A stretch of DNA of 15,531 nucleotides from a virus. The notes under the pieces were generated by a model. That model was not told the DNA's origin. It did not search any database and saw only the letters and a program-made list of their open reading frames with translations. Position numbers and translations under genes: made by a program. Each line of letters opens with the position of its first letter. The first letter of the stretch is position 1. The stretch is from UHGV virus genome UHGV-1641076. The stretch is one strand, 5' to 3'. Of this stretch, positions 1-13,569 are shown piece by piece.

Positions 1-154
1 GCCAGGTAACCGGCTCACCTTTTTCGTTCTGCTCATTACAGAAAAAATAACGTTCTCCACCGACCTCTGTCAGGTCGATTTCCCAGAGCACCACGCTGGC
101 CGACTGCTCCGCACGGGTGCATTCATTCAGTGTTTCCTGCCGGATATCCTGCAT
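1..154 (-). CDS. L: Tail tip assembly protein L, N-terminal part only (gene runs off the window start)
   Basis: Minus-strand ATG at 154..152 overlaps the M stop (ATGA). Translation from 154 downward reads MQDIRQETLNECTRAEQSASVVLWEIDLTEVGGERYFF..., matching my recall of the lambda gpL N-terminus. Truncated by the window edge. Confidence 0.85.
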   Translation of the reverse strand, partial: MQDIRQETLNECTRAEQSASVVLWEIDLTEVGGERYFFCNEQNEKGEPVTW

Positions 155-483
155 CAGTTCACCACCTGTTCAAACTCTGCGCTGAACTCAACACGCAGCA
201 TACTGACCCGCGACGACCATTTTGCGCAGGTCACCTTTATCTGCCGCCACTCATAAGGCGGCGTCCACAGAAAGGCTTTCCAGCCCCCGTGCTCTTCCAG
301 AAACGACTCCAGTACCGTGGCCTCCTCACGGGGGACAGAAAGCGTCACGCTGTACGTTTTCAGGTTGGCATTCAGCCCGGCAGGCGCTCGCTGGGAATAG
401 CCATCACCAAAGCGCACCTTTCTTACAGAAGGGACCGAAGCCACATCCATACCGGGTTTCACTTTCCAGCGGAAGGTCTTCAT
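154..483 (-). CDS. M: Tail tip protein M (109 aa)
   Basis: 109-aa ORF MKTFRWKVKPGMDVASV... with the same length and position as lambda gpM. Its start overlaps the H stop and its stop overlaps the L start. Confidence 0.9.
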   Translation of the reverse strand: MKTFRWKVKPGMDVASVPSVRKVRFGDGYSQRAPAGLNANLKTYSVTLSVPREEATVLESFLEEHGGWKAFLWTPPYEWRQIKVTCAKWSSRVSMLRVEFSAEFEQVVN

Positions 484-3041
484 CGTCCACCTCCGGAGAA
501 CAGGCCACCATCACGCATCTGTGTCTGAATTTCATCGCGGGCACCCTTGCGGGCCATGTCATACACTGCTTTCATCATCTGTGGACCTGGCAGACCATTC
601 GTACCGTCGTTCTGAATCACCACGTTGTTGTTCTGCTCAAACCTGATACCCTCTGAACGCCGCATTTGCGCCGGACTTCCGGTGCCACCGACATAACCGC
701 CGGTGGCATAGCCGCGCATCAGCCGGTAGAGATTTCCCACGCCAATCCGGCTGGTTGCCTCCTTCGTGAAGACAAATTCACCACGGTGAACAATCCCCGC
801 TGGCTCATATTTGCCGCCGGTTCCCGTAAATCCTCCGGTTGCAAAATGGAATTTCGCCGCAGCGGCCTGAATGGCTGTACCGCCTGACGCGGATGCGCCG
901 CCACCAACAGCCCCGCCAATGGCGCTGCCGATACTCCCGACAATCCCCACCATTGCCTGCTTAAGCAGAATTTCTGTCATCATGGACAGCACGGAACGGG
1001 TGAAGCTGCGCCAGTTCTGCTCACTGCCGGTCAGCATCGCCGCCATATTCTGTGCAATACCATCAAAGGTCTGCGTGGCTGCACTTTTAACCTGCGACAT
1101 ACTGTCCGTGGCGCTCTCTTCCCACTCACTCCAGCCGGACTTCAGGCCTGCCATCCAGCTCCCGCGAAGCTGGTCTTCAGCCGCCCAGGTCTTTTTCTGC
1201 TCTGACATGACGTTATTCAGCGCCAGCGGATTATCGCCATACTGTTCCTTCAGGCGCTGTTCCGTGGCTTCCCGTTCTGCCTGCCGGTCAGTCAGCCCCC
1301 GGCTTTTCGCATCAATGGCGGCCCGTTTTGCCCGTTGCTGCTGTGCGAATTTATCCGCCTGCTGCGCCAGCGCGTTCAGGCGCTCCTGATACGTAACCTT
1401 GTCGCCAAGTGCAGCCAGCTGGCGTTTGTACTCCAGCGTCTCATCTTTATGCGCCAGCAGGGATTTCTCCTGTGCAGACAGCTGGCGACGTTGCGCCGCC
1501 TCCTCCAGTACCGCGAACTGGCTCTCCGCCTTCCACAAATCCCGGCGCTGCTGGCTGATTTTCTCATTTGCTCCGGCATGCTTCTCCAGCGTCCGGAGTT
1601 CAGCCTGAAGCGTCAGCAGGGCAGCATGAGCACTGTCTTCCTGACGATCGCCCGCAGACACCTTCACGCCGGACTGTTTCGGCTTTTTCAGCGTCGCTTC
1701 ATAATCCTTTTTCGCCGCCGCCATCAGCGTGTTGTAATCCGCCTGCAGGATTTTCCCGTCTTTCAGTGCCTTGTTCAGTTCTTCCTGACGGGCGGTATAT
1801 TTCTCCAGCGGCGTCTGCAGCCGTTCGTAAGCCTTCTGCGCCTCTTCGGTATATTTCAGCTGTGACGCTTCAGTATCGCTCTGCTGCTGCGCATTTTTGT
1901 CCTGTTGAGTCTGCTGCTCAGCCTTCTTTCGGGCGGCTTCAAGCGCAAGACGGGCCTTTTCACGATCATCCCAGTAACGCGCCCGCGCTTCATCGTTAAC
2001 AAAATAATCATCCTTGCGCAGATTCCAGATGTCGTCTGCTTTCTTAAACGCAGCCTCTGCCTTAATCAGCATCTCCTGAGCGGTATCAGGACGACCAATA
2101 TCCAGCACCGCATCCCACATGGATTTGAATGCCCGTGCTGTCCTGTCTGCCCAGGTTTCCAGCGTGCCCATGTTCTCTTTCAGGCGTCGGGTCTGGTCAT
2201 CAAACCCTTTCGTTGCGGCCTCGTTCGCCGCCTGCAATGCCCCGGCTTCATCGCCGGAACGCTGCAACTGAGCAACATACGCAATCTGCTCCGCCGTCAC
2301 GTTATGGAACTGGCGTGCCATCGCCGTCAGCCCCGACGTCGGGTCTGTGGTCAGCTTCCCGAAGGCTTCAGCGACCTTGTCCACCTCCACGCCGGATGCA
2401 GAGGAGAAACGCGCCACACTCTGGCTGATGGACGCAATCTGAGCCTCACCGCTTACCCCCGCCTTAACCAGTGCGCTGAGTGACTCGCTGGTCTGGTTAA
2501 ACGTCAGCCCTGCCGCCTGCCCGGCTCTGGACAGGACCAGCATACGATCTGCCGTCAGTCCCGCCTGATTGCCGGAAAGGACCAGCGTTTTGTTGAAATC
2601 GGACAGGGTTGAGTTGCCCTGATACCAGGCATACGCCAGCGCTCCGGTCGCCACCGCCAGCGAGGTGGCCCCCACCATCGGCAGGGTGATCGCACCGGCA
2701 AGCCCCCGGAACATGGGGATCATCCCGCCGAAGGAGTCCTTCACCTGACCCCCCTGTTGCAGCAGGATCAGCCACGGACTTTGCCCGCCTGCAAGCTGCG
2801 TGGCCACGTCAGTGAACTGCGCAGGCAGCATACGCATGGCGGCTTTATACTGCCCGACGGAAATTCCCGCTTTCTGTGCAGCCAGCGCCTGCCGGTTCAT
2901 CGACTGTTCAACGACTGCCGCTGTTTTTTTCGCATCACTTTCCGTACCGGAAAAATGACGCCTGACTCTGGCCATCTGCTCGTCAAATCTGGCCGCATCC
3001 AGACTCAAATCAACGACCAGATCGCCTACCGGTTCAGCCAT
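480..3041 (-). CDS. H: Tail tape measure protein H (853 aa)
   Basis: 853-aa ORF, the same length as lambda gpH. It has a long Ala/Gln/Glu/Lys/Arg-rich helical middle, a Gly-rich hydrophobic segment near the C-terminus (GIVGSIGSAIGGAVGGGASASGG), and sits between T and M. Confidence 0.93.
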   Translation of the reverse strand: MAEPVGDLVVDLSLDAARFDEQMARVRRHFSGTESDAKKTAAVVEQSMNRQALAAQKAGISVGQYKAAMRMLPAQFTDVATQLAGGQSPWLILLQQGGQVKDSFGGMIPMFRGLAGAITLPMVGATSLAVATGALAYAWYQGNSTLSDFNKTLVLSGNQAGLTADRMLVLSRAGQAAGLTFNQTSESLSALVKAGVSGEAQIASISQSVARFSSASGVEVDKVAEAFGKLTTDPTSGLTAMARQFHNVTAEQIAYVAQLQRSGDEAGALQAANEAATKGFDDQTRRLKENMGTLETWADRTARAFKSMWDAVLDIGRPDTAQEMLIKAEAAFKKADDIWNLRKDDYFVNDEARARYWDDREKARLALEAARKKAEQQTQQDKNAQQQSDTEASQLKYTEEAQKAYERLQTPLEKYTARQEELNKALKDGKILQADYNTLMAAAKKDYEATLKKPKQSGVKVSAGDRQEDSAHAALLTLQAELRTLEKHAGANEKISQQRRDLWKAESQFAVLEEAAQRRQLSAQEKSLLAHKDETLEYKRQLAALGDKVTYQERLNALAQQADKFAQQQRAKRAAIDAKSRGLTDRQAEREATEQRLKEQYGDNPLALNNVMSEQKKTWAAEDQLRGSWMAGLKSGWSEWEESATDSMSQVKSAATQTFDGIAQNMAAMLTGSEQNWRSFTRSVLSMMTEILLKQAMVGIVGSIGSAIGGAVGGGASASGGTAIQAAAAKFHFATGGFTGTGGKYEPAGIVHRGEFVFTKEATSRIGVGNLYRLMRGYATGGYVGGTGSPAQMRRSEGIRFEQNNNVVIQNDGTNGLPGPQMMKAVYDMARKGARDEIQTQMRDGGLFSGGGR

Positions 3042-12860: not shown

Positions 12861-13380
12861 TCAGCAACCCCGGTATCAGTTCATCCAGCGCGGCTGCTTT
12901 GTTCATGGCTTTGATGATATCCCGTTTCAGGAAATCAACATGTCGGTTTTCCAGTTCCGGAAAACGCCGCTGCACCGACAGGGGGATCCCGTCGAGAATA
13001 CTGGCAATTTCACCTGCGATCCGCGACAACACGAAAGTACAGAATGCGGTTTCCACCACTTCAGCGGAGTCTCTGGCATTCTTCAGTTCCTGTGCGTCGG
13101 CCTGCGCACGCGTAAGTCGATGGCGTTCGTACTCAATAGTTCCTGGCTGGAGATCTGCCTCGCTGGCCTGCCGCAGTTCTTCAACCTCCCGGCGCAGCTT
13201 TTCGTTCTCAATTTCAGCATCCCTTTCGGCATACCATTTTATGACGGCGGCAGAGTCATAAAGCACCTCATTACCCTTGCCACCGCCTCGCAGAACGGGC
13301 ATTCCCTGTTCCTGCCAGTTCTGAATGGTACGGATACTCGCACCGAAAATGTCAGCCAGCTGCTTTTTGTTGACTTCCAT
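12835..13380 (-). CDS. Nu1: Terminase small subunit Nu1 (181 aa)
   Basis: 181-aa ORF MEVNKKQLADIFGASIRTIQNWQEQGMPVLRGGGKGNEVLYD... with an N-terminal winged-HTH DNA-binding region. It is the first gene after cos, as in lambda. Confidence 0.93.
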   Translation of the reverse strand: MEVNKKQLADIFGASIRTIQNWQEQGMPVLRGGGKGNEVLYDSAAVIKWYAERDAEIENEKLRREVEELRQASEADLQPGTIEYERHRLTRAQADAQELKNARDSAEVVETAFCTFVLSRIAGEIASILDGIPLSVQRRFPELENRHVDFLKRDIIKAMNKAAALDELIPGLLSEYIEQSG

Positions 13381-13557
13381 TGTTCATTCCACGGCCAAAA
13401 ACAGAGAAAGGAAACGACAAAGGCCCAAAAGTTCGTTTTCAGCACCTGTCGTTTCCTTTCTTTTCAGGGGGTATTTTAAATAAAAACATTAAGTTACGAC
13501 AAAGAAGAACGGAAACGCCTTAAACCGGAAAATTTTCATAAATAGCGAAAACCCGCG
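13381..13557 (-). promoter_or_regulatory. cosB terminase-binding region: three Nu1-binding R elements (approx R1 13403..13420, R2 13445..13460, R3 13504..13519) and an AT-rich IHF-type site (approx 13461..13503)
   Basis: Three copies of the GGAAACG / CGTTTCC core (R2 inverted relative to R1 and R3), with lambda-like spacing between cosN and Nu1. The reverse complement of this stretch matches my recall of the lambda left end, with a few substitutions. Confidence 0.75.
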
Positions 13558-13569
13558 AGGTCGCCGCCC
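13558..13569 (-). other. cosN: the 12-nt cohesive-end sequence GGGCGGCGACCT (reverse complement of plus-strand aggtcgccgccc)
   Basis: Exact match to the lambda cohesive end. It is flanked by ...GTTACG on the lysis side and CGCGGGTTTTCGCTATTTATGAAAATTTTCC on the Nu1 side. Confidence 0.9.

Follow-up and report, generated by a model that had tools for sequence, protein, structure and literature searches.

The viral DNA stretch UHGV-1641076, 15,531 nucleotides in length and referred to here as the window, carries the head and tail genes of a lambda-like phage joined at the cos site to a lysis cassette of the type found in Shiga toxin (Stx) phages. It very probably belongs to the genome of a lambda-like temperate phage that resides in Escherichia coli, most likely as a chromosomal prophage, with its modules joined by recombination at the cos core. 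The point of exchange is confined to 51 bp that include the cohesive-end sequence. All genes of the window lie on the minus strand, and the sequence as given is read opposite to transcription. The cos region contains the following features.

13381 to 13557, minus strand: cosB and the Nu1 leader, lambda-type; identity to lambda 13-190 is about 96%, and one nucleotide is missing at lambda 138.
13558 to 13569, minus strand: the cosN cohesive-end sequence GGGCGGCGACCT, uncut, equal to lambda 1-12 and joined without a break to the lysis side.
13525 to 13575, no strand assigned: the 51-bp interval of the crossover, where the lysis-side module gives way to the packaging module of lambda type, from informative sites in a three-way alignment.
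13593 to 13599, minus strand: the cosQ heptamer GGGTCCT, in the block GGGTCCTTTC (-30 to -21), which is invariant across 26 loci.

The crossover was mapped by aligning 130 bp to the left and 150 bp to the right of the cosN nick. The alignment comprised the window, the lambda-type members lambda, L003 and L023, and the prophages L007, L009, L011, L004 and L017, which carry other head genes. From window position 13701 down to 13525, there are 0-2 mismatches to the cos-left flank of L007, L009 and L011, whose heads are not of the lambda type. At 13524 these three diverge abruptly, and the window is lambda-type onward through cosB and Nu1. The tetranucleotide GGCC at 13576-13579, which occupies -7 to -10 to the left of the cosN nick, is of the L009 type, whereas the lambda type has ACAG. 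The crossover is placed in 13525-13575 because the sequence is L009-type at 13576-13579 and lambda-type from 13524 onward. This interval holds cosN itself (13558-13569) and the 33 bp to its right. The GGCC motif, a run of four consecutive substitutions, is common to prophages with a non-lambda cosB. A boundary at window 13622, 53 bp to the left of the nick, was suggested by a comparison with lambda only and was rejected, as the match over 13570-13622 reflects the universal conservation of the cosQ region. The heptamer GGGTCCT is presumably the exact cosQ sequence of Wieczorek and Feiss 2001.

The cosN sequence is bordered by CG dinucleotides, giving CG|GGGCGGCGACCT|CG. Among the 26 loci with this arrangement, which were retrieved through the window's own proteins, six classes of left flank (lysis side) and five classes of right flank (cosB side) occur in 11 combinations. 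Invariant positions make up 59 of 100 in the core, against 0 of 65 and 3 of 65 in the two flanks. The exact A protein of the window adjoins at least three other lysis cassettes, including those with phage-21-like 165-aa lysozymes and with a GH108 endolysin. Judging from these alignments, modules reassort on either side of the cosQ-cosN core, which forms a conserved island between them.

It has been reported that conservation among lambda, 21 and N15 extends to cosQ (7 bp, highly conserved), cosN and I2, while specificity lies in cosB, which must match the small terminase subunit (PMC4669245). A crossover at cosN fits this packaging biology. In the window a cosB of lambda specificity (R3-I1-R2-R1), so judged on overall identity, is paired with a Nu1 that matches lambda at 180 of 181 residues. 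Packaging specificity, as cosB with Nu1 and A, travels with the head genes, and the cosQ-cosN core is the joint to interchangeable lysis and moron modules. It is proposed that the modules were joined by homologous recombination inside the core of approximately 100 bp formed by cosQ, cosN and I2. This core, conserved in all phages with lambda cohesive ends, would act as a homologous linker between unrelated flanks. Because the arm carries a lambda-type cosB, the terminase would be expected to recognise cos as in lambda, with Nu1 binding cosB, A nicking cosN and cosQ serving for termination.

The structural arm follows lambda throughout. By megablast against phage records, window 1-13569 matches lambda 13582-1 as its reverse complement, with a nucleotide identity of 97.3%, and the match to circularly permuted or prophage-derived records extends to window 13622. 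Direct alignment to the join of the right and left ends of lambda gives one block of 13,641 columns at 97.26% (window 13622-1 against lambda 48451-48502, then 1-13582). A second, weaker block lies within Rz (window 13845-14218 against lambda 46038-46408, 84.5%). Indels in the arm are few, namely 1 nt in the non-coding cosB/Nu1 leader (lambda 138) and 9 and 3 nt, both in frame, in FI; therefore all start/stop overlaps and intergenic gaps are of lambda length. The gene order is Nu1-A-W-B-C/Nu3-D-E-FI-FII-Z-U-V-G/T-H-M-L, with 17 complete genes and a partial L corresponding one-to-one with lambda and free of internal stops. For Nu1, A, W, B, C, Nu3, D, E, FII, Z, U, V, G, T, H and M, length and start codon are those of lambda, the only stop is the one that ends the gene, and amino acid identity is 86-100%. 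FI is the sole gene that departs from the lambda length (128 aa against 132). Longer mechanical open reading frames (ORFs) for D (112 aa), V (256 aa), E (350 aa) and FI (141 aa) were set aside; they are due to in-frame upstream start codons and are not real differences from lambda. The slippery heptamer GGGAAAG (G GGA AAG), the programmed -1 frameshift site of G-T, is found at window 3474. The genes of the arm, all on the minus strand, are as follows.

1 to 154, minus strand: L, minor tail protein, first 51 codons; 51/51 aa as in lambda L; truncated where the window and scaffold end, and continued in contig L034.
154 to 483, minus strand: M, 109 aa; 108/109 as in lambda M.
480 to 3041, minus strand: H, tape measure protein, 853 aa; 828/853 as in lambda H, with a divergent patch at aa 786-823.
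3034 to 3468, minus strand: T, 144 aa; 143/144 as in lambda.
3450 to 3872, minus strand: G, 140 aa; 120/140 as in lambda.
3888 to 4628, minus strand: V, major tail protein, 246 aa; 238/246 as in lambda.
4636 to 5031, minus strand: U, 131 aa; 129/131 as in lambda.
5028 to 5606, minus strand: Z, 192 aa; 188/192 as in lambda.
5618 to 5971, minus strand: FII, 117 aa; 113/117 as in lambda.
5983 to 6369, minus strand: FI, 128 aa; 117/132 matched, with the 9-nt and 3-nt in-frame deletions.
6411 to 7436, minus strand: E, major capsid protein, 341 aa; 334/341 as in lambda.
7492 to 7824, minus strand: D, decoration protein, 110 aa; 110/110 as in lambda.
7834 to 9153, minus strand: C protease, 439 aa; 432/439, with a GTG start as in lambda.
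7834 to 8439, minus strand: Nu3 scaffold, 201 aa, nested in C in the same frame; 198/201, with an ATG start as in lambda.
9134 to 10735, minus strand: B, portal, 533 aa; 530/533 as in lambda.
10732 to 10938, minus strand: W, 68 aa; 67/68 as in lambda.
10935 to 12860, minus strand: A, terminase, 641 aa; 636/641 as in lambda.
12835 to 13380, minus strand: Nu1, terminase, 181 aa; 180/181 as in lambda.

On the other side of cosN lies a lysis cassette with a predicted signal-arrest-release (SAR) endolysin, two small ORFs and an embedded spanin pair.

14778 to 15311, minus strand: R, predicted R21-like SAR endolysin (GH24), 177 aa; PF00959 (Phage_lysozyme), 2.8e-25; phage 21 lysozyme 3HDE/3HDF, 3e-16.
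14655 to 14687, minus strand: a terminator-like hairpin immediately past R, ahead of the small ORFs; after its 13-bp stem comes GTGTTTCTGA.
14439 to 14621, minus strand: orf60, a small predicted membrane ORF of 60 aa; phrog_1115, 3e-42, a PHROG without known function.
14293 to 14424, minus strand: orf43, a small predicted membrane ORF of 43 aa; phrog_4906, 2e-23, a PHROG without known function.
13823 to 14296, minus strand: Rz, i-spanin, 157 aa, GTG start; PF03245, 7e-47; 67% aa identity to lambda Rz.
13885 to 14070, minus strand: Rz1, o-spanin, 61 aa, embedded in Rz in the +1 frame; PF06085, 4e-20; 70% aa identity to lambda Rz1.
13570 to 13822, minus strand: the Rz-to-cos spacer, 253 bp, without bor; in lambda it is 2075 bp, with bor and two ORFs.

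Between R and lambda R, blastp detects no similarity at a cut-off as loose as E<=10. It aligns with R21 (3HDE) in the same residue register, 32-174 against 32-163, and the catalytic triad E35-x8-D44-x5-T50 can be read off its translation. The N-terminal segment at residues 7-24, YGLSAAVLALIAIGAPAP, consists of 50% G/A/S/T, with the peak hydropathy window at residues 9-23. These features point to an R21-like SAR endolysin, which would be exported by Sec without cleavage and released from the membrane on depolarisation. Such endolysins, with pinholins of the phage 21 family, are reported to be almost universal in Stx phages (PMC8136144; PMC10462455). In relatives with an identical R, a 71-aa holin of PF04971 (phage 21 holin family) lies upstream; the upstream region of R in the window is cut off by the insertion sequence IS1 and the scaffold end. 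In the phage 21 lysis system (S21 pinholin and R21; PDB 3HDE/3HDF), the homologous GH24 endolysin likewise has a catalytic Glu 35 and an N-terminal hydrophobic segment rich in Gly and Ala, though its homology to the window R is distant (E 3e-16). Rz1 has a VSAC lipobox and a PPPPP motif, as in a two-component embedded spanin. Rz and Rz1 are lambda homologs at 84% nucleotide identity, and the lysis module is only partly non-lambda because of them. Lysis would proceed by the SAR endolysin/pinholin mechanism together with the embedded Rz/Rz1 spanins. Late transcription is expected to run from R-orf60-orf43-Rz/Rz1 across the uncut cos into Nu1-A-W-B-C/Nu3-D-E-FI-FII-Z-U-V-G/T-H-M-L.

An earlier note, made from the window's sequence before any alignment, had described a lambda-collinear arm joined within a few tens of bp of cosN to a non-lambda lysis module. 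The alignment to lambda that it called for bears out the collinearity (97.3% nucleotide identity, genes intact), and the crossover at 13525-13575 agrees with its boundary. Its statement that all genes from Nu1 to L keep the lambda lengths, order, overlaps and gaps holds for all gaps and for the complete genes apart from FI, at 128 aa against 132. On the lysis side, the SAR endolysin, the extra small genes and the different Rz-to-cos spacer are all recovered (an R21-like R, orf60 and orf43, 253 against 2075 bp). The description of this side as non-lambda is correct for R, which is unrelated to lambda R, and has to be withdrawn for Rz/Rz1, lambda homologs at 67-70% amino acid identity.

The combination of modules has several known relatives. 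Lambda (NC_001416 / J02459) has in 1-13582 and cos the same 12-nt cohesive end, cosQ heptamer, lambda-type cosB and G-T slippery site. It differs in an FI that is 4 aa longer, in divergent patches within G, FI and H 786-823, and in the four substitutions at -7 to -10. Its R is a transglycosylase, in contrast to the SAR GH24 endolysin of the window, which also has the two extra small ORFs. The succession Rz, short spacer, cosQ, cosN, lambda-type cosB and Nu1, without a moron insert, is found in Stx1a phages (e.g., Stx1_112808, LC645435) and in 192 complete E. coli genomes (e.g., O157), with full-length matches to window 13450-13900 at 93.6-94.9%; overall, this type is only about 89-94% identical to the window. 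Ten records of Stx1a-converting phages match window 13450-13900 over its full length at 93.6-94.0%. The same short-spacer junction (13450-13900) is covered to at least 80% in 192 of 5426 complete E. coli genomes, where the best full-length matches reach 94-95%. In LC645435 nothing aligns with the stretch that holds the two small ORFs between R and Rz (window 14303-14622), and the left flank of cosN reads ACAG as in lambda. 

The lysis cassette itself is most like that of the O104:H4 Stx2 prophage type (L013, CP003289; L017, GCA_037911555.1). L017 is 99.84% identical to window 13634-15476, a span that takes in R, orf60, orf43, Rz/Rz1 and the first 190 bp downstream. L013 and L017 carry the 71-aa holin of the phage 21 family upstream and have no IS1 upstream of R. 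They differ from the window in 775 bp of extra sequence before cos, in another cosB and in head proteins of sizes unlike those of lambda (A 642, portal 530, C 501, D 115 and E 342 aa). Window positions 13623-13633 form a recurrent junction between modules and morons, where the segment after Rz meets the cosQ flank, and the window has no insert there. In relatives this junction holds 775 bp in L017 (a 46-aa ORF, DUF3950) and 1.2 kb in L005 (a gene of the YlcI/YnfO family). The latter is an Stx2g prophage with a lambda-type arm, and its extra 1.2 kb lies at window 13624/13634.

The best overall phage match to the arm is PhiR42_1 (PV340562) at 97.7%, which shares the G allele at 100% and is, like PhiR and mEp332, a wild lambda-like phage. 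It differs in an R of approximately 86% identity, in a distance of about 2.9 kb from R to cos that contains several moron genes, and in the ACAG flank of cosN. At least 80% of the window is covered at one place in 2943 of the 5426 complete E. coli genomes. Exact look-ups find the R, Rz and A sequences at thousands of places, and 2997 blocks of the public collection list the A protein in exactly this form. The junction of a lambda-type arm with an Stx-type lysis cassette is already present in public annotated records, an ordinary and well-documented case of lambdoid mosaicism. As a clear textbook example of modular exchange in lambdoid phages, the window has little significance beyond annotation. 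A lambda-type arm beside an Stx-phage-type lysis cassette is evidence neither for an Stx phage nor for lambda itself.

The window corresponds to almost the entire metagenome scaffold LIUW16-1_SAMN05414984_METAG-scaffold_1835 (ENA ERZ28595376, L040, 15,529 bp), at 100% identity. Contigs identical to it were traced through its rare H and FI alleles. The E. coli contig DABSRL010000063.1 (assembly GCA_014583145.1, L034) is 100% identical to window 1-15473 and runs on across L, K, I and J. A metagenome contig with a k141 name (L039), probably a MEGAHIT assembly, agrees at 100% with window 1-13778. A contig of the E. coli isolate GCA_013077485.1 (L030) is 100% identical over the part recovered, which stops at 13041, short of cos. 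There are in this way four sources of 100% identity, two E. coli isolate assemblies and two metagenomes. Since the window is nearly a whole metagenome scaffold and the same sequence occurs in isolate and metagenome contigs, both of its ends are assembly breaks and not biological ends.

The earlier note had also held that the DNA is a prophage or replicative form and not a packaged linear end. The latter part stands, as the sequence is continuous across the nick, abuts IS1 and occurs in isolate contigs; the term prophage draws on the isolate-genome origin and not on att sites, since the attL/attR sites and host genes sought in the flanks are found on no recovered contig.

Several points weigh against an integrated prophage with modules joined by recombination at the core. 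Neither the window nor any 100%-identical contig carries an att site, integrase or host gene, and integration is deduced indirectly, from the occurrence in isolate genomes and from closed E. coli chromosomes that hold near-identical arms. The joining mechanism (homologous, stimulated by cut cos ends, or illegitimate) is suggested by the position of the breakpoint only. The 26 loci, being exact matches to proteins of the window, are not a random sample, and the conservation of their flanks was scored without gaps. The holin gene, Q and pR' would lie beyond IS1 and the scaffold end, so that an intact late operon cannot be confirmed from the window.

This last point bears on IS1, which the earlier note had missed, and on the ORF that it interrupts.

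15477 to 15531, plus strand: the left end of IS1 (left inverted repeat, IRL, side), first 55 nt, matching IS1A of E. coli K-12 without a mismatch; the window and scaffold stop here.
15440 to 15476, plus strand: the first 12 codons of a small ORF (ATG at 15440), interrupted by IS1.

The alternative that survives best is a defective (cryptic) prophage, in which an IS1-mediated deletion or rearrangement cut R-Rz and the arm off from the holin, Q and pR'; this is regarded as possible rather than probable. The IRL of IS1 begins at 15477, 165 bp upstream of R, within an ORF that is uninterrupted in E. coli 55989 (315 nt, WP_000551290.1) and intact in many other strains. Every 100%-identical contig ends at or before the IS1 junction, and nothing upstream is linked to the window. 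The insertion occurs in no complete E. coli genome: a megablast search of window 15250-15531 returned no record of the phage/IS1 junction among the 5426, and an exact-pattern scan of the GTDB representative genomes found none. A Shigella origin, considered on account of the IS1, was set aside, as the identical contigs are from E. coli. However, the 17 structural and packaging genes together with R, Rz and Rz1 are open, full length and otherwise undisrupted, which argues for recent function. Short-read contigs are also expected to break at IS copies, whether rearranged or not. Q-modified RNA polymerase reads through terminators, and for this reason a simple 768-bp IS1 need not be polar. The 55-nt length of the IS1 remnant suggests a k-mer overlap at the contig end. 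At window 15462-15490 on the minus strand there is a promoter-like arrangement facing R, with TTGGCA in the IS1 end, a 17-nt spacer and AATCAT in phage DNA. It could be a hybrid promoter created at the IS1 junction; it agrees at 9 of 12 consensus positions and may be a chance match.

Two further proposals, both considered unlikely, go beyond the reading of a recombinant prophage. The first is that orf60 and orf43 are undescribed regulators of the timing of SAR-endolysin/pinholin lysis and not passive morons. Separately, the cosQ-cosN core might be actively recombinogenic, for example through terminase-cut ends, and more than a conserved linker by homology. The exact sequences of orf60 and orf43 each occur on approximately 1000 Enterobacteriaceae contigs, where they are named only as hypothetical or transmembrane proteins. 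The two ORFs are hydrophobic and remain uninterrupted in every relative examined, and the end of orf43 shares 4 nt with the start of Rz. Synonymous against non-synonymous changes stand at approximately 5:5 and 7:4, from too few substitutions to be informative. A search of the literature on genes between R and Rz returned nothing specific to orf60 or orf43.

It is decidedly improbable that the window represents replicating phage DNA, circular or concatemeric, or virion DNA annealed at cos, instead of an integrated prophage. Such an origin would accord with the lack of a linked att site or host gene and with the two metagenomes among the four sources. It is countered by the identical contigs from E. 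coli isolate genome assemblies and by the near-identical arms in closed E. coli chromosomes. An IS1 insertion counted as fixed at one place in the identical contigs, which themselves end at or before the junction, also speaks against it. 

A misassembly, in which two co-resident lambdoid prophages were joined at the shared cos core of a metagenome scaffold, is scarcely credible even though the window is identical to such a scaffold (L040) and the crossover falls in a segment common to many prophages, because two of the four independent assemblies are 100% identical across the junction (the isolate L034, and L039 to 13778) and the segment common to both parental types is only 51 bp, below the k-mers implied. 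The join is not a chimera, since independent assemblies agree across cos. As a rule, the linkage of modules in such scaffolds needs a check in isolate or long-read data, because they end at IS copies and at regions common to co-resident prophages.

Within the arm of the recombinant prophage, a finer mosaicism is also apparent. The differences from lambda (n=374) are strongly clustered, with a variance/mean of 6.9 in 100-bp bins against a maximum of 1.48 over 2000 permutations. There are 34 bins without any difference from lambda, where 8.5 are expected, and one bin, at window 583-682 on the minus strand, holds 35. The divergent patches are in FI, G, the start of V and codons 786-823 of H. In H, 18 of the 25 amino acid differences from lambda are concentrated at aa 786-823, near the C-terminus, and this patch is divergent from PhiR42_1 and L005 too. 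Separate patches are identical to separate relatives: the G allele is shared at 100% with PhiR42_1 and several prophages, and the V patch is identical in L025 only. On the sequence comparison, this is the pattern that allele exchange among lambda-like prophages usually leaves.

A few minor observations concern the window outside the coding regions discussed above. A scan with Rfam (gathering threshold) and ARAGORN found no RNA family and no tRNA in the window. The terminator-like hairpin at 14655-14687 falls inside the expected single late transcript. A 55-aa ORF at window 13668-13835 on the minus strand starts at the Rz stop and matches phrog_6954 ("Rz-like spanin") at 1e-16 despite lying downstream of Rz; it may be a conserved ORF of the spacer or an annotation carry-over.

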